Position numbers and translations under genes: made by a program. Shown one piece after another: positions 3,001 to 26,414 of a stretch of DNA of 32,000 bases; within the stretch, counting starts at the first letter, position 1, and each line of letters begins with the position of its first letter. The notes below the pieces were generated by a model that worked only from the letters and a program-made list of their open reading frames with translations, made no database searches and was not told the origin of the DNA. The stretch spans positions 1 to 32,000 of the forward strand of contig DAHXMM010000020.1 in the NCBI GenBank assembly GCA_027371715.1, in the 5' to 3' direction. Source of the stretch: Elusimicrobiota bacterium (GTDB taxonomy: Bacteria; Elusimicrobiota; Elusimicrobia; UBA1565; UBA9628).

Positions 3001-4481
3001 CTTTCCCGGCTGATTCCGGCATTATTCCCATCACCAAGTCTCCGGATGTCTTGAGCGTATTTCCGACCAACCTTATCAACCCCGCCGGCGTCGTTCAAGG
3101 CCAAAACGCGCCGGCGACGGAACTCAGTCTGATCACCCAGCACAGTTCGGTGACCTGGACGACGATTGCCGTCCAAAGAAGCGGGACCTTGCCGGATTCG
3201 GGAGTTGATTCCGTCAATGTTTATTACGACGCCGATCAAAACGGGGTGTTTGATTCCTCGGACGTCTTGGTCGGAAGCGCGCCGTTTGTTTCCGGAACGG
3301 CTAACATTTCTTTTTCCACCGCTCAGCTGGTCAATCCCGGAGGTTCGGACTATTTCGTCACGCTTCAAATCGATCCGAACGCCACACCCGGAGATACCAT
3401 TGGAATTTCTCTCTCTGGAAATTCTAACTTTAAGGTTTTGCCTCCAGATACGGTTTCGGGATCGAGCCTTCCTTTTAATTCGGCCCTGGCGCCGGTCTTA
3501 AACATAAAAACTCCGATCACGCCCGTCGTCACATTCCCCAATGGAGATTTTTCCAGTTCCTTTGACTCCATCGGATTTATCTGGTATTCGACCGTCGCCG
3601 TCGGGTCTATTTCAAGCGCGGCCTATGCCGTAGGAACGACGCCCGGGGGAACCGATATTGCGCCCTACACCAATATCCCTTTCGCCGCTTCCAGCTTTAC
3701 CGCGGTCAATCTTCTGCTCAGTAACGGCGCGACCTATTACGTATCTGTCGAAGCGACGTCCAACTACGGTTTTACCAGTCCGCCGGGAACCAGCCCCGGG
3801 TTCCTGGTCGATTTGATTACGCCCATGCCGCCGAGTAGTTTGACGGCTAATGTCGGAGTCAGCTCGATTTATCTCACCTGGAATCCCGGCAGCGCGGGGC
3901 CCTCGGGACTCGCGGGATACCTGCTTGAATATTCCGATGTCGAACATCCGACCTGGTATAACGCGAAAACCGGAGCGGTCTCCGCCCTGGAGATGGGGAC
4001 TGTCCCTAACTCCGCCAGCCCGCATTCCGTCTTGTCGGCGAATTTTATTTCCGCTTCGCCGTTCTTGTTCAATAGCCCGCCGCAAGGAACTCTGATGTTC
4101 CGCGTCAGTTCAGTCAACGGCGCGGGGGTACAAAGCGCGCCTTCCGACACCATTCGCGTGCTTTTTGGGACGCAATCGACGGCGGGAATATCCAACGTTT
4201 CCTCCTATCCCAATCCCTTTAATTCTAATTCCGGCGTGGCCACCATCGTCTATACCTTGGACGCGCCGGGAAGCGTCTCGATTCAAATCTACAGCGTCTT
4301 TGGAAGTCTCGTCAAAAGTTTCTCTTATTCCGGTGGAGGCACGGGGGGAGAAGCCGGAGTCAACACCGTCACCTGGGATGGGACGGATTCCGGGGGCCGC
4401 AAAGTATCGAAGGGAATTTACATTGCCGTCCTTAAAGCCAACGGCATGAGCGTCCAATACAAGATCGGGGTCAATCACTGA
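3..4481 (+). CDS. Giant secreted cell-surface protein, 5'-truncated by the window edge; repeat-rich Ig/FN3-like modules with a C-terminal FlgD-Ig / T9SS type-A sorting-like domain
   Basis: Frame 3 is open from the window edge (GDHPTSIGSIYESPDGVNWNLVY... precedes the ORF-track TTG at 180), so the true start lies upstream. Stop TGA is at 4479-4481. Five ~160-aa modules share the motif LGxGxxSDISxVxIYxD. Two Cys-containing ~48-aa modules are present. There is an FN3-like segment (SIYLTWNPGSAGPSGLAGYLLEY). The last ~95 aa (SYPNPFN...VTWDGTDSGGRKVSKGIYI...) resemble FlgD-Ig/Por-secretion tail domains. Confidence 0.85.
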   Translation, partial: GDHPTSIGSIYESPDGVNWNLVYATSTDANFGALSDFNGQLYAGSVNGSIYQITPVAATLAGSDGTNAAEKLSATGLNLVQSTSTVTCGGVSPCGATDQIIFTASDLAGNVLESGPYAILVDTTVAPAISTPSYPSNGAYLNYQTNFSWIGPSTTVVSGLLPPSFYQLEVSNNDPTFATTFVNISTPIPPVNTGLATDNGAYISTYTFANLTTYYWRVRTVDGFGGTSPWSETFNFTTDFSSPTAVNGSFATLNSLGGLVPETQVTVLQNGVTAQLNITDIGSGFSAFNSTDYSVRYSTNAGAVWISDPFSALAFTGLIGQTSTQTFTAYGLNLAASTNSIVCAGISPCGASNQIEFTFSDQAGNFTTAGPYAIIVDTHSTDVLVSTADVAPLGIPQNTSVAFIRLTLNSLAGTAPWTGLTVERLGSGTDSDVQNVAIYRDSLGTGIFSPSDTQITQNAVFSGGVVNLTMTNPESITTSTKTYFVVYTAAAGALVGDGLQAEITSTASFTFNGGYAMSAAQTTIYPLISSTATVVDGPNYLYITPTSKAPSDDPPGTANIEMLALKAYTNTGTSTLSKIVFNLLGTGASNDISAISIYRDSNGTGVYANNDELVTSGSDAFLNGVSTVAFTTTIASETVTTSPIYYFVLISLSPNAPLGDTLGVSISTPSNVELIDVLDTTTFTSNPAASSLLTIEYVNTLNVQGASQIPPSLLQGQEYAVLKASFTVSTGETAFDGMDITRLGLGHDSDISAVRIWQDPNPPEAFNPATFLQLSSGSFVNGNAQLNFPLQTLSAGTTYVYYVTYDISPTATQGDTLGGRITSNLDISDTNPGTTIVGNFSINSATSPVVPTTAGLFVGAQNVAPSDLLQGATNQQMLNLTMDTTQYSVLLGALTFNSLGTAASSDISRVEVYQDLVGNGILNTTKDPLLSALSYPFISGTGIIPFSSGITISTISITLLVAVDVSTGANYINNDFGIGIATQANISINSPNFVVPSTTTFPADSGIIPITKSPDVLSVFPTNLINPAGVVQGQNAPATELSLITQHSSVTWTTIAVQRSGTLPDSGVDSVNVYYDADQNGVFDSSDVLVGSAPFVSGTANISFSTAQLVNPGGSDYFVTLQIDPNATPGDTIGISLSGNSNFKVLPPDTVSGSSLPFNSALAPVLNIKTPITPVVTFPNGDFSSSFDSIGFIWYSTVAVGSISSAAYAVGTTPGGTDIAPYTNIPFAASSFTAVNLLLSNGATYYVSVEATSNYGFTSPPGTSPGFLVDLITPMPPSSLTANVGVSSIYLTWNPGSAGPSGLAGYLLEYSDVEHPTWYNAKTGAVSALEMGTVPNSASPHSVLSANFISASPFLFNSPPQGTLMFRVSSVNGAGVQSAPSDTIRVLFGTQSTAGISNVSSYPNPFNSNSGVATIVYTLDAPGSVSIQIYSVFGSLVKSFSYSGGGTGGEAGVNTVTWDGTDSGGRKVSKGIYIAVLKANGMSVQYKIGVNH
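3995..4011. repeat. Palindrome copy inside the surface-protein CDS (read as MGTVPNS)
   Basis: gagatGGGGACTGTCCCTAACTcc, perfect core at 3996-4006. Confidence 0.85.
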
Positions 4482-5110
4482 CATGAAAAAAAAAGGGACA
4501 GTCCCTTTTTCGGCCGCCCCACATGAGAATCCAGCCCCATTTTCTTTCTTGTCTCCAGCTCACATCCATCATCCACGATATATTTGTAAATCTCCACTCT
4601 CTTTTGGGAAAAGTCAGCCAAAGACAAATAAGCGGGGCTCTCTTCCAAAAAAGGGGACTGTCCCTTTTCTCCCAAATAAAAGCGATAACTGGACCAAGAA
4701 TAATCTTCCGGTTTCCGCGCGATGGCCGCGCGCACGGGATTTAACTCGATATAGCGGCCGCAAAGAAGAAGACTTCGGTCCGTCGGCAATAAAACGCTTT
4801 TATAGCGCCCCTGCCAGAGATGCCCCACCGAGGAATTTTTCTCTCGGAAATAATCGGAATACCCCTGTAAAAGCTTTTGCATCGCCTTGCTCAGGTCTTC
4901 CGGCTTTTGAACCTGGACCAAGAGATGAATATGGTTGGGCATCAGAACATAATGATGGATCCGAAAAGGATTTTTCACCTTGCTCCACCGCAGAATGTCC
5001 AAAAATCTCTCATAATCGGCTGTTTCATGGAACACGGCTTGACGATTATTCCCGCGCGCCATCAAGTGGTAAAACCCTCCTTCAATCAAATGTCTCCCGC
5101 ATCTTGACAT
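4475..5110 (-). CDS. REP-associated tyrosine transposase (RAYT; IS200-like Y1/HUH transposase, COG1943 type)
   Basis: 211-aa ORF with N-terminal GGFYHLMARGNNRQAVF, HUH motif in VLMPNHIHLLV and catalytic-Tyr region GRYIELNPVRA. SD GGGGAG (5118-5123, minus strand) lies 8 nt upstream of the ATG. Palindromic repeats sit on both sides. The last 12 codons run through the repeat at 4486-4510, and codons GEKGQSPF run through the repeat at 4647-4668. Confidence 0.9.
   Translation of the reverse strand: MSRCGRHLIEGGFYHLMARGNNRQAVFHETADYERFLDILRWSKVKNPFRIHHYVLMPNHIHLLVQVQKPEDLSKAMQKLLQGYSDYFREKNSSVGHLWQGRYKSVLLPTDRSLLLCGRYIELNPVRAAIARKPEDYSWSSYRFYLGEKGQSPFLEESPAYLSLADFSQKRVEIYKYIVDDGCELETRKKMGLDSHVGRPKKGLSLFFSCQ
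4486..4510. repeat. Palindrome copy, A/T-run-flanked subtype
   Basis: A9-GGGACAGTCCC-T5, core at 4495-4505, starting 14 nt after the surface-protein stop and inside the RAYT 3' end. Confidence 0.9.
4647..4668. repeat. Palindrome copy, A/T-run-flanked subtype, inside the RAYT CDS
   Basis: A6-G-GGGACTGTCCC-T4, core at 4654-4664. Confidence 0.85.
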
Positions 5111-5179
5111 ATCAGAGTCTCCCCTTATCCGAATTATCTCCTACCTCTCATACGTCAAAAACGAGAAAAAAGTTCCCTC

Positions 5180-5203
5180 AAAAAAAGGGACAGTCCCTTT
5201 TTT
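5180..5203. repeat. Palindrome copy, A/T-run-flanked subtype
   Basis: A7-GGGACAGTCCC-T6, core at 5187-5197, upstream of the RAYT start. Confidence 0.9.
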
Positions 5204-5205
5204 CA

Positions 5206-6765
5206 TTGATTCTAAACAAAAAAGGGACAGTCCCTTTTTTCTTATTTCTACTTCTCTCCTCCATATCGGCATCGGCCGCGAGCTTCTATGCGGGTTCTCC
5301 CAACGAGATATTTCAATTCGGCGCGGATGCCAGGGCCATGGGCATGGGCAACGCCTACACCGCCATTGCCGGTGGAGCGTCTTCCCTTTATTACAACCCG
5401 GCGGGCCTCGGTCTTCTCAATGGCCCCGATGTCAGCGCCATGCAGGCCAGTCTTATTGGCGGCGCGGCCTATGAAGATTTATCCTACGCCCAAAATTTCT
5501 CAAAAATGCCGGGAGCTTGGGGCGTTGAAGCCCTCAATATGGGAGTGGGAGGGGCCGAGCAAAGAGACTCTCAAAATAATCTCACCGGAAGCTTTGGTTT
5601 TCAAGAAACCGGATACGGAGCGGGATTTGGCCTAAGGAATGTCGTCATTCCGAACTTATCCTTGGGAGGCTCTTTTCAGGGGCTCAGCCGAAGCTTGGGC
5701 GGTAGTTCTTCCGACATGCTCTATGGAGCGAATTTGGGAGCCCAGTACGGCCCCTTTTTGGACAATATGGTGACCGCGGGTTTGGTCCTCCAAAACGGTT
5801 TTAACGGAGCGCAAAATACCTTTGACCGGCTACCCACGGTTTTACGCGCAGGGCTCGCCGTCACTCCCATCAATAATCTTCTCATTTCCGCGGATTACGG
5901 CGATGATGGCGATTACGGAATCGGCGCGGAATATCGAATATGGATGTTCGCCATACGAGCCGGATATATCCCCCAAGGCCTCACCTTCGGCGCCGGAATC
6001 TATTATCAATCTCTGGAAGCCGATGTCGCGATGGTCAACGATCCAATTTTTGGAATGGGGGAGAGATTCTCGCTTAATTACCGATTCGCGGGAAAGAAGA
6101 AAGAAAAGCCTCTTGAAGCTTACACTAATAGTTATCTGGATGCCGCAAAAAAAGAATTAAGTCTCCGCAATTATCTCAGCGCGCAATTCGCGCTTGAAGA
6201 AGCGATGGGAGTCTCTCCCGCTCAGATTCCTCAGACATGGAAAGAAAAACTCAAACTTCTTCAAGCTTTTAATGGCAGCCTAGATCTCAAAAACCGTCCG
6301 GATGAGGTCAAAACTCTCCTTGCAAAAGATCAACCGGCCATACTCGCCCAAAAATCGGTTTTTTCTTATTTAAACGGACGCGACGGAGACGCCATGATTT
6401 GGGCGTCCGTGGCAGCCGGAACCGCTCATAAATCCATGCCCTATATTGACTTTGTCAAGACGATGGCTTATCTTACGAATATGAAGGTTTCGGAAGGGGA
6501 TTTATTGCCTCCACCAGATTATGTTTCCAAAAAAATGGAGACTGCTCTTCATGCTATTTATCAAAAGCGTTTTGCCAATGCGGTTAAAAATTGCCAACAG
6601 GCCATCGTGGTAAACCCGAAAGAGCCTTCTGCCTGGACGCGGCTGGGTAGCGCTTATTTTGCCTGGGGACATAAGGATGAAGCCAAAAAAGCCTATCAGA
6701 AAGCTTTAGAGCTTGATCCCAAGAACGAAAATTTAAAGAAATTTATGGAGATGTATATCAAATGA
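5206..6765 (+). CDS. Outer-membrane beta-barrel protein (PorV/PorQ- or UPF0164-like N-terminal motif) with C-terminal TPR domain
   Basis: In-frame TTG at 5206 gives MILNKKGTVPFFLFLLLSSISASAAS, a plausible signal peptide; the first in-frame ATG would remove it. GADARAMGMGNAYTAIAGGASSLYYNPAGLG resembles the conserved N-terminal motif of PorV-like/FadL-like barrels, followed by Gly/aromatic-rich beta-strand-like sequence. The C-terminus has TPR-like repeats (AWTRLGSAYFAWGHKDEAKKAYQKALELDPKN). The 760-aa ORF-track model (4483..) is an antisense-RAYT artefact at its 5' end. Confidence 0.7.
   Translation: MILNKKGTVPFFLFLLLSSISASAASFYAGSPNEIFQFGADARAMGMGNAYTAIAGGASSLYYNPAGLGLLNGPDVSAMQASLIGGAAYEDLSYAQNFSKMPGAWGVEALNMGVGGAEQRDSQNNLTGSFGFQETGYGAGFGLRNVVIPNLSLGGSFQGLSRSLGGSSSDMLYGANLGAQYGPFLDNMVTAGLVLQNGFNGAQNTFDRLPTVLRAGLAVTPINNLLISADYGDDGDYGIGAEYRIWMFAIRAGYIPQGLTFGAGIYYQSLEADVAMVNDPIFGMGERFSLNYRFAGKKKEKPLEAYTNSYLDAAKKELSLRNYLSAQFALEEAMGVSPAQIPQTWKEKLKLLQAFNGSLDLKNRPDEVKTLLAKDQPAILAQKSVFSYLNGRDGDAMIWASVAAGTAHKSMPYIDFVKTMAYLTNMKVSEGDLLPPPDYVSKKMETALHAIYQKRFANAVKNCQQAIVVNPKEPSAWTRLGSAYFAWGHKDEAKKAYQKALELDPKNENLKKFMEMYIK
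5218..5240. repeat. Palindrome copy, A/T-run-flanked subtype, overlapping the OMP signal-peptide codons
   Basis: A6-GGGACAGTCCC-T6, core at 5224-5234, read as KKGTVPFF. Confidence 0.9.
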
Positions 6766-6910
6766 AAGAAACGGAAAGTAAAAGAAAGTTACGGAAAGAA
6801 AATGAAAGAAACAGAAAAAGGCCTTACCTTGCTCTTCGTTCCTTTCTGTTGCTTTCCGTTACTTGCCGTTGCTTTCCGTTTCTTGCCGTTGCTCGCCGTT
6901 GCTGGAGGTT
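6761..6910. repeat. Phased 10-nt repeat array: six NNNGAAAGNN units followed by eight pyrimidine-rich units ending in (C/T/G)GTT, mutually complementary
   Basis: Units at 6761-6820: aatGAAAGaa, acgGAAAGta, aaaGAAAGtt, acgGAAAGaa, aatGAAAGaa, acaGAAAAag. Units at 6831-6910: gctcttcgtt, cctttctgtt, gctttccgtt, acttgccgtt, gctttccgtt, tcttgccgtt, gctcgccgtt, gctggaggtt. There is a perfect 13-nt inverted repeat: AAGAAACGGAAAG (6766-6778) versus CTTTCCGTTTCTT (6872-6884). Confidence 0.8.
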
Positions 6911-9498: not shown

Positions 9499-10443
9499 AT
9501 GGGTATGGCTGAAAGTCCGAAAGGTTCCATCTTTTCCTCCTTAAGGGCGCTGGAAGAAATTCCGGAAGAAACTCCCGCCGCGCCTCCGACTTCGCAAAAC
9601 CCTTCACCCTCTCCCACCCCCGCCGCACAAACACCAACGCCCACGCCGCCACCTTCGCAAGCGCCTCCTCCATCAGATGAGACTTTGAAAGCCGTGGAGT
9701 CAAAAATCGAAAAGTTAGAACAAAAAATCCAGGAGATGGGGACAGTCCCCAATTCAGACCCTCATCTTAACCGTATTGAAGCCCTGGAGCAAAAATTGCA
9801 ACAAATGCAGGAACGCGCCATTCAGGCGGAGGTCGCTCTCAGAGAGCGCGAGAAATCCCAAGAAGCCGCCCGGCGCGAGACGGAATCTCTTCTTCAAAAT
9901 TTAGCGTCCCAGCGCCGGCTTGAAGAATCGGACCGGCAAATGAAGGAAAATCTGGCTTATTGCCGACGCCGAATCGAAGAATTGGAGGAAAAACAATCCT
10001 CTATTAAAATTCCGGATACCCAACAATCGGAAAATGAGTTTAAATCCCTCCTAAAAAGTTTTATGGAACAGATCGAGCTAAAAACAACTCCGGTTTTAGC
10101 GTCTCTTGTTGATCTCAGGAAAGAAAATGAAAACCGCGAAAAAGAAAATCGCGGCATGGAGCAAAGGATAAACGAGATTGAGAAAAATATCAATTCTTTT
10201 TTTTCGACAGAGTTAGGGCAAGCGAGCGCTCTAGCAGAAGGATTACGCCACCTAAAACAAACCGTGGAACGAGTCAACACGGAAACCGCGGAAAAACTCG
10301 AAAAAATAAGCGCCGCTCTAAGCCTATTAGAATTTAGGCATTCCCAAGCGAAAAACACAACAGAAGAATTACGCGCTCTCGATAAAGACTTTCAGAAAAT
10401 ACTCTCCATTCTCGATGCCAGCGTTTCCAACTCGCCCAAATAA
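9499..10443 (+). CDS. Pro-rich N-terminus / long coiled-coil cytoplasmic protein, unknown function
   Basis: The ORF has heptad-like charged repeats (IEKLEQKIQE, IEALEQKLQQMQERAIQAE, RRRIEELEEKQ) and a PT/PS-rich tract (PSPSPTPAAQTPTPTPPPSQAPPPS). The start is ambiguous (ATG 9499 or 9505; the ORF-track start at 9487 is non-ATG). It contains an in-frame palindrome copy (EMGTVPNS). Confidence 0.7.
   Translation: MGMAESPKGSIFSSLRALEEIPEETPAAPPTSQNPSPSPTPAAQTPTPTPPPSQAPPPSDETLKAVESKIEKLEQKIQEMGTVPNSDPHLNRIEALEQKLQQMQERAIQAEVALREREKSQEAARRETESLLQNLASQRRLEESDRQMKENLAYCRRRIEELEEKQSSIKIPDTQQSENEFKSLLKSFMEQIELKTTPVLASLVDLRKENENREKENRGMEQRINEIEKNINSFFSTELGQASALAEGLRHLKQTVERVNTETAEKLEKISAALSLLEFRHSQAKNTTEELRALDKDFQKILSILDASVSNSPK
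9738..9754. repeat. Palindrome copy inside the coiled-coil CDS (read as MGTVPNS)
   Basis: gagatGGGGACAGTCCCCAATTca, perfect core at 9739-9749. Confidence 0.85.
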
Positions 10444-11238: not shown

Positions 11239-11241
11239 ATG

Positions 11242-11262
11242 AATTGGGGACTGTCCCTAATT
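11242..11262. repeat. 21-nt palindrome copy between motA and motB
   Basis: AATTGGGGACTGTCCCTAATT, core at 11247-11257, 4 nt after the motA stop and 8 nt before the motB ATG. Confidence 0.9.
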
Positions 11263-11269
11263 ATTAATT

Positions 11270-15735: not shown

Positions 15736-15746
15736 GGGACTGTGCC
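15736..15746. repeat. Degenerate palindrome copy GGGACTGTGCC
   Basis: agataGGGACTGTGCCtcttc, 4 nt after the stop at 15730-15732. It has one mismatch to the core and is complementary to 15770-15780 except at the central base. Confidence 0.6.
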
Positions 15747-15769
15747 TCTTCTTCATAATTCTTAAGGGC

Positions 15770-15780
15770 GGCACTGTCCC
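15770..15780. repeat. Degenerate palindrome copy GGCACTGTCCC
   Basis: aagggcGGCACTGTCCCgacc, with one mismatch to the core. Confidence 0.55.
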
Positions 15781-15801
15781 GACCTTAAGGTTCTAAGGAA
15801 A

Positions 15802-15817
15802 GGGACAGTCCCTAATT
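15802..15817. repeat. Palindrome copy GGGACAGTCCC + TAATT flank
   Basis: ggaaaGGGACAGTCCCTAATTatt, with a perfect core, 24 nt upstream of the thiolase ATG. Confidence 0.85.
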
Positions 15818-19251: not shown

Positions 19252-19280
19252 ATTTTACAAAATAATTAGGGACTGTCCCT
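19252..19280 (-). promoter_or_regulatory. Possible sigma70-type promoter for tRNA-Val: -35-like GGGACA (inside the palindrome), 16-nt spacer, -10 TAAAAT
   Basis: The minus strand reads AGTTAGGGACAGTCCCTAATTATTTTGTAAAATCAAAAAGTC followed by the tRNA 5' G. TAAAAT (19257-19252) is 9 nt from the mature 5' end. This is a by-eye match only. Confidence 0.25.
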
Positions 19281-19284
19281 AACT
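19264..19284. repeat. 21-nt palindrome copy between tRNA-Val and the FAH gene
   Basis: AATTAGGGACTGTCCCTAACT, core at 19269-19279, 7 nt before ATG 19291. Confidence 0.9.
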
Positions 19285-20328: not shown

Positions 20329-21529
20329 GCGCGGAGACGTCCCTAAAACCCCACACACTGAATTTTACGGGCGAAAAAATATTCTGTCTTTGGAAGAAAT
20401 CCACGGCACCTACGGTTTTTCCGGAGCTTTCTCCCGGAAGATGCACTTGCGTCGCTACCCGACGATTCAAATAGAAAGCCCTAAACTCCTGCCATTAAAC
20501 CTCAGTAGTCCCGTTCTTAAGGACGCGCCGCTCAGCCCCTATCATCTTTTGACCGGAAAAATACCCTCTCAAGGGGTTTTCGAGCGTTCAAGGCATTGTC
20601 TTCTCAAAGGTCCAAGCGCCGTGATTTCAGTTTCCAAACCAACGAATTCTTCTCCTGAAAATGATTTTTTTCGAAACGCGGAAAGGCACGAATGTCTTTT
20701 CGTACAAGAAGGAAACGGAATTTTGGCCAGCGAATACGGCGAGCTCAAATTTCAAGAAAAAAAATATCTCGTCATTCCCAAGGGAACGACCTATCAATTC
20801 CGCCTTTCAAGTAAACGCGCCTTCTTTCTAATCATTGAATCTCTCTACCCTATTCGCTTTGCCCCGCATTACCTTAACTCCGAGGGACAAGCCACTTTGA
20901 TGTCTCCGGTCATTGAGACTGAAATTGGCATTCCCCAGCTCAAAGAGCCTCTGGACATCTCGGGGAAGTTTAACATCCTCTCTAAACATGACGACGGGAA
21001 AATGACAAAGATTGTCTTGGGGCATCACCCCTTTGATCTCATCGGCTGGGAAGGCGCGCTTTACCCCTTTACCTTTGACTCATCCGATCATCATTCCATC
21101 GCGCGCGAAATTCACACCGCCCCGCCGGTTCGGCAAACCTTTCAAGCGGGAAACGCGCCCCATAGCGGATTTTCAATCTGCACTTTCCGCGCTCAAATCG
21201 AGGGATGGAACCCCAAGGACGTGCCCGCGCCCTATGCGCATTATAATGTTGACTCCGATGAAATGATGTTCTTTTCAAACACAAGCTACGGGGCCCGGAA
21301 AGGAATCGTTGAACCCGGTTCCATCACCTTTCATCCCTCGGGTCTTCCGCATAGCCCGCATGGAGACGCCGCAAAAAAGTCCTTTAAATCTCGCGGCACA
21401 CTGTCGGATTATCTAGCCGTCATGTTGGATACATTTTTTGAATCTCTTCAGCCCACAAAAGAAGCCCTTAAATATTGCGACTCCCAATATCCGCTGAGTT
21501 GGGCCAAAGCGGAAGGGGACTGTCCCTAA
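20312..21529 (+). CDS. hmgA: Homogentisate 1,2-dioxygenase (short bacterial/archaeal COG3508-type cupin)
   Basis: ATG 20312 (MSLIVKRGDVPKTPHTEF...EEIHGTYGFSG) overlaps the FAH stop by 17 nt. The cupin core is ERHECLFVQEGNGILASEYGELKFQEKKYLVIPKGTTYQF, followed by FHPSGLPHSPHG. The stop TAA (21527-21529) is supplied by the palindrome flank. Confidence 0.75.
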   Translation: MSLIVKRGDVPKTPHTEFYGRKNILSLEEIHGTYGFSGAFSRKMHLRRYPTIQIESPKLLPLNLSSPVLKDAPLSPYHLLTGKIPSQGVFERSRHCLLKGPSAVISVSKPTNSSPENDFFRNAERHECLFVQEGNGILASEYGELKFQEKKYLVIPKGTTYQFRLSSKRAFFLIIESLYPIRFAPHYLNSEGQATLMSPVIETEIGIPQLKEPLDISGKFNILSKHDDGKMTKIVLGHHPFDLIGWEGALYPFTFDSSDHHSIAREIHTAPPVRQTFQAGNAPHSGFSICTFRAQIEGWNPKDVPAPYAHYNVDSDEMMFFSNTSYGARKGIVEPGSITFHPSGLPHSPHGDAAKKSFKSRGTLSDYLAVMLDTFFESLQPTKEALKYCDSQYPLSWAKAEGDCP

Positions 21530-21531
21530 CT
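21515..21531. repeat. Palindrome copy at the HGD 3' end that supplies its stop codon
   Basis: ggaaGGGGACTGTCCCTAACTccATG, core at 21516-21526. The TAA at 21527-21529 is the HGD stop. Confidence 0.9.
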
Positions 21532-21533
21532 CC

Positions 21534-22923: not shown

Positions 22924-23703
22924 CTGGGGAGGGGGATAAGGTAGTCCGCGCACGGAAAACTCGGCGCTGACATCGCCCAAAATAGCGTTTTCGCCAAAAG
23001 CCGCCATCTCAAGCCTGGCCGAATTAAGCGTTTTCTTCCCACGGCGGATATTGAGGTGAGAGATAAAAACCTTTCCAGAACTCGCGAAATTTTCGCTAAA
23101 GCCAATTTTTTGATCTTCTAATTGATGAGAATTTAAAAACTTTTCCTTTTGACTTCGGTCTAAGATTGAAACAATGACCGGCTGAACCTTAGTCAAACGA
23201 GTTTTCGAAATAAAAAATCTTAACTCCAAATGTTTGCGCAAATCTTTCAAGGATTTAGGAAATAGAGAAACAATAAATTCTCCATTCGAGGAATTTCCGT
23301 AAAATGCGGAAAAGACTTTGGCGGAAGACTCCTCGCCCTTTAAGGCTTTTTTAAGCGTCACTTTTTTAGTCTTTTTGTTTTTAATTTTCTCAACTACATT
23401 TTGAATCTGGCGCACAAAGAAGGCGGATTTAAAGTTTTTCTTTTTCTCTTTAAAAACTTGAATGGGCTTCCAATGGACCGAATCCTTAGGAATGAAAACC
23501 TCTACGGATGCCTTATATTTTTTCTTTTTTTTCTTTAAACTTCCTTTTTTATTTTCTTTCTTAGGACGTTTAAGGGCCAATTTGTGATTAGATTTTGATT
23601 TTTTCGTTGAGGTGCTTGTGGCGACGTTTTGAGCCGGCAAAACAGTAGGAAATGCCGCCCCTAAAAAAAACCACGCCATTAAAATCGAAAAAAATTTTTT
23701 CAA
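22918..23703 (-). CDS. Lys-rich secreted protein, unknown function
   Basis: TTG start 23703-23701 overlaps the valS stop (TTGA). The signal peptide is MKKFFSILMAWFFLGAAFPTVLPAQN. Poly-Lys tracts are present (KKENKKGSLKKKKKKYK). The gene is visibly more A/T-rich than its neighbours. Confidence 0.6.
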   Translation of the reverse strand: MKKFFSILMAWFFLGAAFPTVLPAQNVATSTSTKKSKSNHKLALKRPKKENKKGSLKKKKKKYKASVEVFIPKDSVHWKPIQVFKEKKKNFKSAFFVRQIQNVVEKIKNKKTKKVTLKKALKGEESSAKVFSAFYGNSSNGEFIVSLFPKSLKDLRKHLELRFFISKTRLTKVQPVIVSILDRSQKEKFLNSHQLEDQKIGFSENFASSGKVFISHLNIRRGKKTLNSARLEMAAFGENAILGDVSAEFSVRGLPYPPPQS

Positions 23704-26414
23704 GCGAGAACCTTAATCAATTCTTCAAGGCGCGCTTTTTTAGAGAGCGCCGTATCCTGGAGAAACCGCGTTTCAGAGACCTCTTCCATAGCCGCTTTTG
23801 AAAGATAATTGGGATCAGAGAGCTTCTGCGATAATTTGCCCAAATCGTTTTCAACTTTTCCAAGCTCTTTTTTTAAGCGTTCAGATTCTTTCTTAAAATC
23901 AATCAAGCCTTCAAGCGGAACATAGAAGGTAAAGTGCGGAGTCACCGTGGAAGCCGCCTTGGTGGGCAGAGATTCTCGCTTAGAACTTAAGAAAGAAATC
24001 TCTCTTCCCCCGGCTAACGCCGCTAAATAAAGAAGATTCTCTTTTAAGAAGTTTGTCTCTGCGGCGTCTTCGCTTTGACAAATGACGGGAATCTTAAGCC
24101 CTGGAGAGATGCCCAGCTGCGCGCGCAAGGACCTTAAAGACTTAACCGCTTCAATTAAAGCGCTCATTCCTTTTTGGGTTTCTTCCGTAATTTTAATTTC
24201 CGGGACATTTGGAAAACGGGAATTCATCAAAAAATCCGCGGGTTCGGTATCCCAAGTTTTTAGGACCGAATAAATTTCTTCCGTGACAAAAGGCATCAAG
24301 GGATGAAGCATTTTAACGACGCCATTTAAAACGGTTATTAAAACGCGAAACGCCGTTTTTTTGGCTCTTAGATCGGCGCCTTGAAGGCGGAGTTTTGCTA
24401 TTTCTACATACCAATCGCAAAACTCATCCCACAAAAACTCATACATTTTCTCCGTCGCGTTGGCGAGATTATAAATTTCAATTTCTTCTTGAACGGAAAG
24501 AATCATCTTTTGGTATTCAGACAAGATCCAAACATCCGCCGCCTCTAATTGGAAGTTAGGGACTGTCCCTAACTCTTCAGGGGCGACCGCATTCATCAAG
24601 GCAAAGCGCGCGGTATTCCAGAGTTTATTGGTAAAATTTCGTCCGGCAATCAGCGAATCTTCCGAAAATAAGATGTCTTTTCCGGGACGGGCTTGGGAAA
24701 TTAAGGAAAAGCGAAGAGCGTCGGTTCCATATTTGTCCATCATCTCGATCGGATCGATAACGTTTCCGAGAGACTTCGACATTTTTTTTCCCTTTTTATC
24801 GCGAATGATGCCGTGGATAAACGCTTCGGAAAAGGGGACCTTCCCGGTTAAATAGAGACCCATCATCTGCATACGAGCGACCCACAGATAGATAATTTCG
24901 TATCCCGTGACGAGAATTTGAGTTGGGTAATAACGCTGGAGATCCTGATTTTTTTCCGGCCAGCCAAAAACGGAGAAAGGCCAAAGGGCCGAGGAAAACC
25001 AGGTGTCTAAAACGTCGGGGTCTTGAATCAATTCCAAATGACCGCAAACAGAACAAGCCTTTGGCTTTTCGCGAGAGACCACTCCCCTAAGATTAGGAAT
25101 TTGATGGAAAGATGAGTCTTTTGAAATCGCGTTGCATTTAAGACAGTACCAAACGGGAATTTCATGTCCCCACCAAATTTGGCGGGAGACGCACCAATCG
25201 CGAATATCGAGGAGCCAGTTCCTATAAGGCTCTTTCCAGGAGGCCGGATAAATTTTAAATTGGTTATTCTCCAAAGTCTTCAAAGCCCCGGCGGCCAAGT
25301 CCTTGGTTTTAACAAACCACTGCCAGGAAAGAAGCGGTTCAATAATTTCCTGACAACGATAACAAATTCCGACCGCGTGCGGATGGGTTTCCGTCTTTTC
25401 CAAAAAGCCTTGGAATTCCAAGTCTTGAATAATTTTTTTGCGCGCATCTTCTCTGGACAATCCGGCATAAAGGCCGCCTTCTTCAGTGATTTTTCCGGAA
25501 GGGGAAATGACCTTGATGCGGGGAAGTTGATGCCGAAGACCCATTTCAAAGTCATTGGGATCATGAGCGGGAGTGACCTTGACGGCTCCCGTTCCAAAAG
25601 AAGACTCGACAAAACCATCTTCAATCACCGGAATTTCTCGGTTCACAAGCGGCAAGCGAAGTTTTTTTCCAATTAAAGACCGATAGCGCTTGTCCTCGGG
25701 GTAAACGGCGACCGCGACATCTCCCAGCATGGTTTCAGGCCGGGTGGTGGCCACAACCAACCCCGGTCCGCCGGAAGCCTCCGGGTAGCGGATATGCCAG
25801 AGATTTCCCTTTCTTTCCTCATGCTCAACTTCTATGTCGGATAAAGCCGTTCCGCATCTCACGCACCAGTTGACCAACCGCTCCCCGCGGTAAAGAAGCC
25901 CGTCATCCCACAATTTTTTAAACGCCTCAAAAACGGCCGCTTTTCGTTTTTCATCCATCGTAAAGGACTCACGGCTAAAATCAAGCGAACATCCGAGTTT
26001 CTTGAGTTGCCCCAAAATCGTCTCTTTACAATGAAGCGTCCAATCTTCCATGCGCTGGGTAAAAGCCTCCCTTCCAATTCTAACGCGAGAAGTGTTTTCA
26101 GCCTTTAAAATTTTTTCCATTACGGTTTGAGTCGCGATGCCGCCGTGATCGGTTCCAGGAACCCAGCAGAGATCTTTTCCTGACATTCTCTTTAAGCGGG
26201 CCAGAAAATCTTGAATGGTATTATTGAGCGCATGCCCAACATGAAGCGCTCCCGTTACATTCGGAGGGGGAATGACCAGGGAATACGGTTCTTGATTTAA
26301 ATCAGGATGAGAATTGAAAATCCCCGATTGAGCCCAATGGTTCACCCAGCGAGCCTCAACATCCTTGGGACTATAGGCTTTGTCCCAGGTTTTTATTTCG
26401 GTCGTTTCATTCAT
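23700..26414 (-). CDS. valS: Valine--tRNA ligase
   Basis: 904 aa with HIGH motif PPPNVTGALHVGHALN, KMSKS motif GKKMSKSLGN, editing-domain TTRPETMLGDVAVAV and a C-terminal coiled coil. Confidence 0.97.
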   Translation of the reverse strand: MNETTEIKTWDKAYSPKDVEARWVNHWAQSGIFNSHPDLNQEPYSLVIPPPNVTGALHVGHALNNTIQDFLARLKRMSGKDLCWVPGTDHGGIATQTVMEKILKAENTSRVRIGREAFTQRMEDWTLHCKETILGQLKKLGCSLDFSRESFTMDEKRKAAVFEAFKKLWDDGLLYRGERLVNWCVRCGTALSDIEVEHEERKGNLWHIRYPEASGGPGLVVATTRPETMLGDVAVAVYPEDKRYRSLIGKKLRLPLVNREIPVIEDGFVESSFGTGAVKVTPAHDPNDFEMGLRHQLPRIKVISPSGKITEEGGLYAGLSREDARKKIIQDLEFQGFLEKTETHPHAVGICYRCQEIIEPLLSWQWFVKTKDLAAGALKTLENNQFKIYPASWKEPYRNWLLDIRDWCVSRQIWWGHEIPVWYCLKCNAISKDSSFHQIPNLRGVVSREKPKACSVCGHLELIQDPDVLDTWFSSALWPFSVFGWPEKNQDLQRYYPTQILVTGYEIIYLWVARMQMMGLYLTGKVPFSEAFIHGIIRDKKGKKMSKSLGNVIDPIEMMDKYGTDALRFSLISQARPGKDILFSEDSLIAGRNFTNKLWNTARFALMNAVAPEELGTVPNFQLEAADVWILSEYQKMILSVQEEIEIYNLANATEKMYEFLWDEFCDWYVEIAKLRLQGADLRAKKTAFRVLITVLNGVVKMLHPLMPFVTEEIYSVLKTWDTEPADFLMNSRFPNVPEIKITEETQKGMSALIEAVKSLRSLRAQLGISPGLKIPVICQSEDAAETNFLKENLLYLAALAGGREISFLSSKRESLPTKAASTVTPHFTFYVPLEGLIDFKKESERLKKELGKVENDLGKLSQKLSDPNYLSKAAMEEVSETRFLQDTALSKKARLEELIKVLA
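24554..24574. repeat. Perfect 21-nt palindrome inside valS (read as ELGTVPNF)
   Basis: AGTTAGGGACTGTCCCTAACT, core at 24559-24569. The arms are exact reverse complements. Confidence 0.9.

Follow-up and report, generated by a model that had tools for sequence, protein, structure and literature searches.

We analyzed a 32,000-nucleotide stretch of DNA from an Elusimicrobiota bacterium (contig DAHXMM010000020.1 of assembly GCA_027371715.1, positions 1 to 32,000; this whole stretch is called the window below), in which the gene for a tyrosine transposase associated with repetitive extragenic palindromes (REPs), or RAYT, lies among short GGGACWGTCCC palindromes. The results showed that the gene and the palindromes are probably an enzyme and its own genus-specific REP-like family. 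The RAYT most likely handles these repeats, a functional link which is well supported by genome comparison, and by its sequence the gene is a domesticated, vertically inherited RAYT, predicted to encode a single-strand-DNA nuclease of the HUH/Y1 type. The gene and its main protein motifs are located as follows.

4475..5110, minus strand: RAYT gene, 211 amino acids, Y1 HUH nuclease, TnpA-REP class
4925..4933, minus strand: HUH motif His60-Ile61-His62, by sequence reading, with columns invariant in two family alignments
4751..4753, minus strand: catalytic Tyr120, within RYIELNPV and followed by the WSSY serine motif, aligned to 4ER8 Y115
4505..4519, minus strand: AT-hook-like GRPKK, residues 198-202, family consensus RGRPKK

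Both sequence comparison and a structural model supported placing the protein in the RAYT class and outside the IS200/IS605 class. The open reading frame (ORF) matched the Pfam family Y1_Tnp (PF01797) with E = 1.4e-15, and it scored 87.4 bits with the NCBIfam model REP_Tyr_transpos (NF047646), above the cut-off of 80, in comparison to 22.8 bits with the IS200 model (NF033573), under the cut-off of 55. The top sequence match among solved structures was the E. coli TnpA-REP structure 4ER8 (E = 3e-5). An AlphaFold (AF2) model calculated with 63 homologs as input (pLDDT 87.7, pTM 0.82) was used for a Foldseek search, where 4ER8 also ranked first (E = 1.5e-9, TM 0.75, 171 columns), followed by the IS608, ISDra2 and IS200 transposases at about 1e-6. 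The initial annotation had reported an IS200-like Y1 ORF with intact HUH and catalytic tyrosine motifs, and H60, H62 and Tyr120 are indeed all present in the 211-residue protein, the Tyr120 column being invariant or nearly so across family alignments. A Pfam scan of the window RAYT and its close relatives returned no second domain. The genome of the window (G000) is a metagenome-assembled genome (MAG) of 1.58 Mb that is 71% complete, and in a search of this assembly the RAYT was the only Y1 gene, in a single copy, while no match to the TnpB-type domain (PF07282) was found; the possibility raised beforehand, that the protein would group with IS200/IS605 TnpA having a TnpB partner, is thus not what the model scores and the genome search returned. 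At their stops, the RAYT gene and the giant surface-protein gene convergent to it overlap by 7 nt, and a promoter scan upstream of the RAYT gave nothing convincing.

Four palindromes and one short box were recognized at the RAYT locus.

5218..5240, unstranded: distal upstream palindrome A6-GGGACAGTCCC-T6, by sequence reading
5180..5203, unstranded: proximal upstream palindrome A7-GGGACAGTCCC-T6, by sequence reading
5172..5179, minus strand: GAGGGAAC box on the RAYT sense strand, directly downstream of the proximal palindrome
4647..4668, unstranded: internal palindrome A6-G-GGGACTGTCCC-T4, centre T, in RAYT codons 148-155, read KGQSPF
4486..4510, unstranded: 3' palindrome A9-GGGACAGTCCC-T5, within the final 12 RAYT codons

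The positions given for all four A/T-run-flanked palindromes in the initial annotation are exact, and the presence of four copies no more than 760 nt from the RAYT has a Poisson probability of about 2e-8. The GAGGGAAC box can base-pair with one palindrome arm and is kept in three aligned loci (the window, L002 and L006), the L006 version being AAGGGAAC. The copies around and inside the RAYT may, speculatively, also be used in autoregulation. If the TTG at 5206 is the start of the adjacent PorV-like/TPR gene, the palindrome at 5218-5240 encodes KKGTVPFF within the n-region of a signal peptide (window 5206-5290); in a related genome (G005, contig C11; L020 1494-1600), the start of a beta-barrel gene reads MNKKRGQSPFSFSRKGTVPFF, with two palindromes in the signal-peptide region.

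The palindromes at the gene belong to a family which is dispersed over the genome. The core GGGACNGTCCC was counted 11 times in the window in comparison to 0.03 expected from shuffles, and 52 times in the MAG in comparison to about 0.7 expected from base composition. The repeat unit is 21 nt long and consists of a GC-rich top (a stem of 4-5 bp with a C-W-G loop) over an AT-rich lower stem of 5-6 bp; when the copies are oriented by their centre base, the top GGGAC-T-GTCCC stands on this lower stem. The genome-wide classification by flank that the initial annotation had proposed gave 44 copies with the AT-rich lower stem GARWTR...YAWYTC, several of them imperfect, and 8 copies with an A-run and a T-run, namely the 4 at the RAYT, 2 on contig C38 and a doublet within the gene for arginyl-tRNA synthetase. 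The claim that A/T-run copies are confined to the RAYT therefore holds within the window and fails genome-wide, where four more exist. The outer-stem positions co-vary in a way that preserves pairing. With the centre base as orientation, 23 copies have G-T and 3 have A-C as the stem pair adjoining the core (P = 9e-5), and this bias indicates that the unit has a polarity, as expected of copies from an imperfect master hairpin. The folding energies of the 23-mers as single-stranded DNA range from -4 to -8.4 kcal/mol. A unit of 21 nt leaves the reading frame intact, and G-T-V-P is always encoded in one of the frames; by direct sequence reading, A/T-run units are free of stop codons in all frames. 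Nothing scored over the Rfam gathering scores, with weak generic hairpin matches on the doublet only. Reading the A/T-run units as terminators was considered and not adopted: the pattern matched on both strands, but the stems hold 3 G-C pairs only.

In addition to the four copies at the gene, the window holds 7 further copies versus 1.0 expected; with gene copies excluded, the region around the RAYT holds 10 versus 2.4 expected in G001 and 5 versus 0.7 in G003, and the repeat density near the locus is 4-7 times the genome average, the window, G001 and G003 having sites in common and thus not amounting to three independent observations. The raised density may reflect a local (cis) action of the RAYT.

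Comparison of orthologous loci provided evidence that the gene and its palindromes have been kept together. RAYT orthologs of 66-70% identity were found in L002 (genome G001), L006 and G003, with the same neighbours, a giant FlgD-Ig-tailed surface protein on one side and a PorV-like/TPR outer-membrane protein on the other. The RAYT core has a ratio of nonsynonymous to synonymous substitution rates (dN/dS) of 0.07-0.12 in comparison to the three orthologs, with dS above 1, and this low ratio together with the fixed site indicates that the RAYT was long kept at one locus under purifying selection. Long single-site retention under purifying selection is a signature of domesticated RAYTs (Bertels et al. 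2017, PMC5581495). All four loci share the palindrome-gene-palindrome layout, with 2 palindromes upstream, 1 internal and 1-2 in the last codons. The REP/RAYT-type arrangement suggested in the initial annotation, and with it an association between palindromes and RAYT, was therefore borne out, with 4 of the 52 copies at the gene and the layout repeated in the orthologs. The internal palindrome occupies the same aligned position in the DNA of the window, L002 and L006 and a corresponding one in the G003 protein. Between orthologs, its core is offset by 1 nt with respect to the reading frame, so that the peptide reads KGQSPF here, RDSPHF in L006 and GDSPLF in G003; as the peptide differs and the hairpin stays, conservation acts on the hairpin at the DNA level and not on the peptide. 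The flanking and internal copies of the L006 RAYT carry GAAATA...TATTTC instead of A/T runs. An apparent internal stop in the G003 RAYT turned out to be the gene's own stop, and the ortholog is intact.

Among the six genomes of the genus (G000-G005), a RAYT ortholog is present in G000, G001 and G003, and G001 also holds a second, distant Y1 gene, while searches of G002, G004 and G005 found no Y1 gene. At the syntenic site of G002 both the RAYT and the palindromes are gone, and an inverted array of 10-nt repeats stands in their place. The RAYT locus was not located in G004 and G005, where the best PorV-like/TPR homolog reaches only 26% identity and neither a RAYT nor palindromes adjoin it. The 10-nt units belong to a second repeat family that forms inverted arrays of units of about 10 nt, with one AACGGAAAG-like arm and one CTTTCCGTT-like arm; such an array follows the PorV-like/TPR gene in the window (6775-6900) and in G002 (contig C33; L019 1096-1501), and the same gap in G001 and G003 contains GGGGACAGTCCCC palindromes and no 10-nt array.

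The number and the integrity of the repeats were then compared with the presence of the gene. The core is found in 52, 142, 16, 76, 23 and 100 copies in G000 to G005, respectively. Of 35 further genomes of the order that were searched, 32 have 0-8 copies, the exceptions being G019 with 17 copies and two genomes of one genus, G031 with 35 and G035 with 158. In G002, the genome with the deleted gene, 16 cores are perfect and the ratio of one-mismatch cores (above control background) to perfect cores is about 1.1, in comparison to 0.2-0.3 in three RAYT-bearing genomes, and its orthologous copies are visibly mutated. The pattern of loss and then decay seen in the G002 sequence agrees with the decay described for REPIN populations that have lost their RAYT. 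Related gene-repeat pairs were also observed outside the genus. The genome G035, from another family, encodes a 284-aa Y1 protein of 31% identity, with a C-terminal helix-turn-helix (HTH) domain (HTH_38/HTH_23), and the same core lies on both sides of its gene inside a longer stem, while in L007 a relative of 52% identity is flanked by the variant core GGGGACAGACCCC with A/T runs. On a Patescibacteria contig (L056), AATAA-GGGGACTGTCCCC-TTATT was found about 1.4 kb from a homolog.

The repeat is mobile DNA, as shown by an insertion, inversions and subfamily replacements at orthologous sites. The copies in the window away from the RAYT are listed below.

3991..4011, plus strand: 21-nt in-frame unit which adds EMGTVPN to the giant surface-protein gene, by ortholog alignment
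9733..9755, unstranded: dispersed copy in a coding region, intact here, decayed in G001 and G002
11241..11263, unstranded: dispersed intergenic copy of GAATTG type, at a site that is A/T-run in G001, hybrid in G003 and empty in G002
15736..15812, unstranded: composite of 3 related palindromes forming one long hairpin, a single unit in G001 and G003
19264..19284, unstranded: dispersed copy beside a tRNA gene, with the 21-nt unit exactly inverted at the orthologous G001 site
21510..21532, unstranded: dispersed copy, with an A/T-run doublet at the equivalent G001 site
24553..24575, unstranded: copy in the 905-aa ORF 23700-26414 (minus strand), with a decayed G001 version of equal length

The unit at 3991-4011 is missing from the G001, G002 and G003 orthologs and has no target-site duplication, as expected from HUH/Y1 chemistry. 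The number of units varies between genomes at 21516 and at 15736-15812. Since simple ORF calling overcounts intragenic copies, these were counted only if confirmed by Pfam domains or ortholog alignments, and in-frame sites were confirmed in an AMP-binding enzyme, arginyl-tRNA synthetase, an ankyrin-caspase linker and the RAYT. The doublet in the AMP-binding enzyme lies directly ahead of the SGTTG motif (G000 contig C6 60927-60975; L035) and reads EIGTVPISA/ELGTVPISA here and KKGTVPFIE/EKGTVPFSA in G001, where the other flank subfamily occupies the same position; it is missing in G002, G003 and G005. The arginyl-tRNA synthetase doublet lies in the DALR domain (G000 contig C14 12430-12480; L037); it is common to G000, G001 and G003, and is decayed in G002.

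Some copies form larger composites. The window composite at 15736-15812 forms a single hairpin of 80 nt when folded (-21.8 kcal/mol) and resembles a REPIN-type higher-order element. A recurring composite has a CTGTCCCGACCTTAAG-type sequence, made up of a one-mismatch core and a spacer, ahead of a perfect unit, and was also seen in G000 at C6 6640, C12 30327 and C38 17520 and 17889. The region C38 17403-17889 (L042) holds 4 units in 500 nt, upstream of a long ORF whose domains are Rce1-like, trypsin and PDZ, or in its N-terminal part; this cluster may be either coding or a BIME-like intergenic array.

The dominant flank differs between genomes, with the A/T-run type leading in G001 (103 of 142 copies) and G003 (43 of 76) and the WTR...YAW type leading in G005 (80 of 100) and G000. 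The two flank subfamilies distinguished in the initial annotation are real, but they interchange at orthologous sites. We read their sequences as genome-specific variants of one family which share the recognised core, and not as two systems, because sites switch type between genomes and the L006 RAYT is flanked by the other type.

The C-terminal tail of the RAYT offers a candidate for a second contact with the repeat. The consensus RGRPKK, which we take to be an AT-hook core, is represented by GRPKK here, and the codons of its two lysines are at the same time the A-run of the 3' palindrome. Among homologs of at least 180 aa, 46 of 101 end with a C-terminal [RK]GRP[RK], and the tail bearing GRPKK is disordered in the AlphaFold model. 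The literature searched contained no description of an AT-hook combined with TnpA-REP. The tail may, speculatively, act as a reader of the AT-rich lower stem, which would explain the tolerance of several AT-rich flank subfamilies.

Based on the analogy with E. coli TnpA-REP and the IS608/ISDra2 TnpA proteins, the unit would fold into a hairpin when single-stranded at the replication fork, and the RAYT would bind this hairpin and cut its foot by Tyr120 with the HUH-bound metal. Strand transfer could then excise, insert, invert or overwrite units, with the consequence that cores would stay perfect where the gene is retained and decay where it is lost. A more ambitious version, which we regard as rather unlikely, is that the RAYT, besides dispersing hairpins, repeatedly overwrites or inverts units of 21 nt, or exchanges their subfamily, in place at fixed sites that include essential-gene loops and its own coding sequence, in an HUH-driven process similar to gene conversion, with the AT-hook-like tail reading the lower stem and the repeats of each genome being homogenised toward a genome-specific master.

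Several observations weigh against the pairing of this RAYT with the palindrome family. The genome G005 is 94% complete and carries 100 perfect cores at a one-mismatch ratio of about 0.06, with no Y1 gene detected. No directly flanking hairpin of this type was found at 3 distant homologs (L055, L056 and L057), of which L056 alone holds the core, so that the association is not shown for the whole protein family. The A/T-run subfamily flanking the RAYT is rare in G000 (8 of 52 copies, 4 of them at the gene), and the abundant, recently active subfamily of this genome carries other flanks. The incompleteness of the MAG (71% complete) leaves room for a second RAYT. No conserved GTAG or GTGG (the GT[AG]G guide tetranucleotide) stands beside the stem in the oriented consensus GARWTR-GGGACTGTCCC-YAWYTC or in the A-run/T-run type.

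These points bear in part on the explanation that the palindromes are host elements independent of the RAYT, such as two-way terminators, RNA-stability hairpins or protein-binding sites, with a secondary clustering at a RAYT that has another role on single-stranded DNA. The intact copies of G005, the difference between the dominant G000 subfamily and the RAYT-flanking copies, the many copies at gene ends and the fit of A/T-run copies to a simple terminator-like pattern on both strands would all agree with it. We consider it unlikely, as it gives no account of the decay in RAYT-less G002 versus the perfect cores in RAYT-bearing relatives, nor of the 21-nt insertion, the inversion and the subfamily swaps at fixed sites. 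Furthermore, many copies lie deep within coding regions, in which termination would do harm, and the same core flanks Y1 genes of only 31-52% identity in other lineages.

Another explanation, which we hold to be quite improbable, divides the family between two enzymes, with the GARWTR...YAWYTC subfamily moved by another Y1 enzyme, one not present in the 71%-complete MAG, and the RAYT serving the A/T-run copies only. The dominance of the A/T-run type in RAYT-bearing G001 and G003 and of the other type in G000 and RAYT-less G005 could be understood in this way, and G001 does have a second, distant Y1 gene. It is opposed by the L006 RAYT, which is flanked by and contains GAAATA...TATTTC copies, by doublets and singles that change subfamily at orthologous sites, as fits one machinery with a shared core, and by the absence of a second Y1 gene from the assembled 1.58 Mb. 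Finally, the idea that the gene and the palindromes form an autonomous insertion sequence of IS200/IS605 type, with a palindrome at either end, is hardly credible, since the Y1_Tnp fold and subterminal hairpins on both sides, which do resemble IS200/IS608 ends, belong here to a single-copy gene without TnpB that scores under the IS200 cut-off and has the same neighbours in four diverged genomes (dS above 1), while its hairpin family is dispersed genome-wide (52 copies) apart from the gene, and the G002 site lacks gene and hairpins and is filled by another repeat instead of being a clean empty site of insertion-sequence size.

An enzyme with its own REP-like family resembles several known systems in part. 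The likeness to the E. coli REPtron (TnpA-REP YafM/RayT, 4ER8; REP/BIME) is seen in the best structural and sequence match. As in this REPtron and in the RAYT/REPIN systems of Pseudomonas, a single-copy, vertically inherited gene is flanked by a genome-dispersed hairpin family, the palindromes are imperfect with a polarity and occur as doublets, and the repeats decay after RAYT loss. The differences from E. coli TnpA-REP include an identity of about 20% and the non-conservation of the GTAG-reading residues E100, H101 and R104, while W94-Q95 is conserved. In comparison to E. coli REPs, the units are 21 nt instead of 35-40 nt, lack GT[AG]G, have a large intragenic share and come from the phylum Elusimicrobiota. 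To our knowledge, experimental RAYT/REP work is almost confined to Proteobacteria.

TIRYT genes, in turn, are flanked by inverted repeats sharing GGGGWSAS, some terminal inverted repeats (TIRs) are self-complementary and make up moderately abundant families in dimers or clusters, and intragenic REPs have been listed for several species (Di Nocera et al. 2013, PMC3733652). The present system is similar to TIRtrons/TIRYT in having a RAYT-like Y1 gene with inverted repeats and no GTAG REPs, and its core (G)GGGACAG comes close to GGGGWSAS: the L002/G001 orthologs and G035 carry GGGGACAG, and the window copies carry AGGGACAG or GGGGACTG, which agree at 7 of 8 positions. It differs from TIRYT in that each flanking repeat is a complete hairpin of 21-23 nt and not one arm of a long TIR. 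TnpA-Y1 subclass 2.1 (Quentin et al. 2018, PMC6006769) as well as RAYT Group 1 (Bertels et al. 2017, PMC5581495) are taken to correspond to TIRYT. Among the subclasses into which TnpA-Y1 proteins are split, subclass 2.1 has C-terminal HTH domains and no REP-like sequences found near its genes, and in-frame REPs occur within the tnpA-REP genes of subclass 2.4 (PMC6006769). The G035 relative, flanked by the same core, shares the C-terminal HTH with subclass 2.1; the window RAYT, unlike that subclass, is short (211 aa), is without an HTH/DnaA_C-like domain (Bac_DnaA_C, HTH_23, HTH_28) and ends with GRPKK. Unlike in subclass 2.4, its internal copy comes after the catalytic Tyr and not between HUH and Tyr.

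The IS200/IS605 TnpA proteins (IS608, ISDra2, IS200) have in common with the RAYT the HUH/Y1 fold, the single catalytic Tyr and insertion without target-site duplication, and the recognition of single-stranded DNA hairpins would by analogy be shared. The RAYT gene differs from them in not being repeated, in having no TnpB, in scoring under the IS200 cut-off and in hairpins dispersed without the gene. The palindromes that lie in frame, frequently as doublets, within loops of functional proteins are comparable to Rickettsia palindromic elements (Ogata et al.) and to intragenic REPs, but the unit is much shorter (7 codons) and the internal RAYT copy is kept as DNA, with an encoded peptide that shifts frame between orthologs.

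Judged by these sequence features, the system is a REPtron/TIRtron-type arrangement, with neither an HTH domain nor the GTAG foot of canonical REPs. Bacterial repeat systems of this kind are known already, and the present one, from an uncultured genus of Elusimicrobiota, is not a new kind; its unusual traits are the 21-nt unit, the many in-frame intragenic copies, the DNA-level hairpin within the transposase gene, the genome-specific subfamilies and the AT-hook-like tail. The genus provides a compact natural comparison, with 4 genomes having the gene at one locus, 1 in which it is deleted and the repeats decayed, and 2 without a detectable gene, and the very short unit allows gains, inversions and subfamily swaps to be read directly at orthologous sites, even in essential genes. 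This makes testable the maintenance of repeats by the enzyme, the recognition target (a shared GC-rich top and a variable AT-rich stem), and the tolerance of proteins for 7-codon hairpin inserts.

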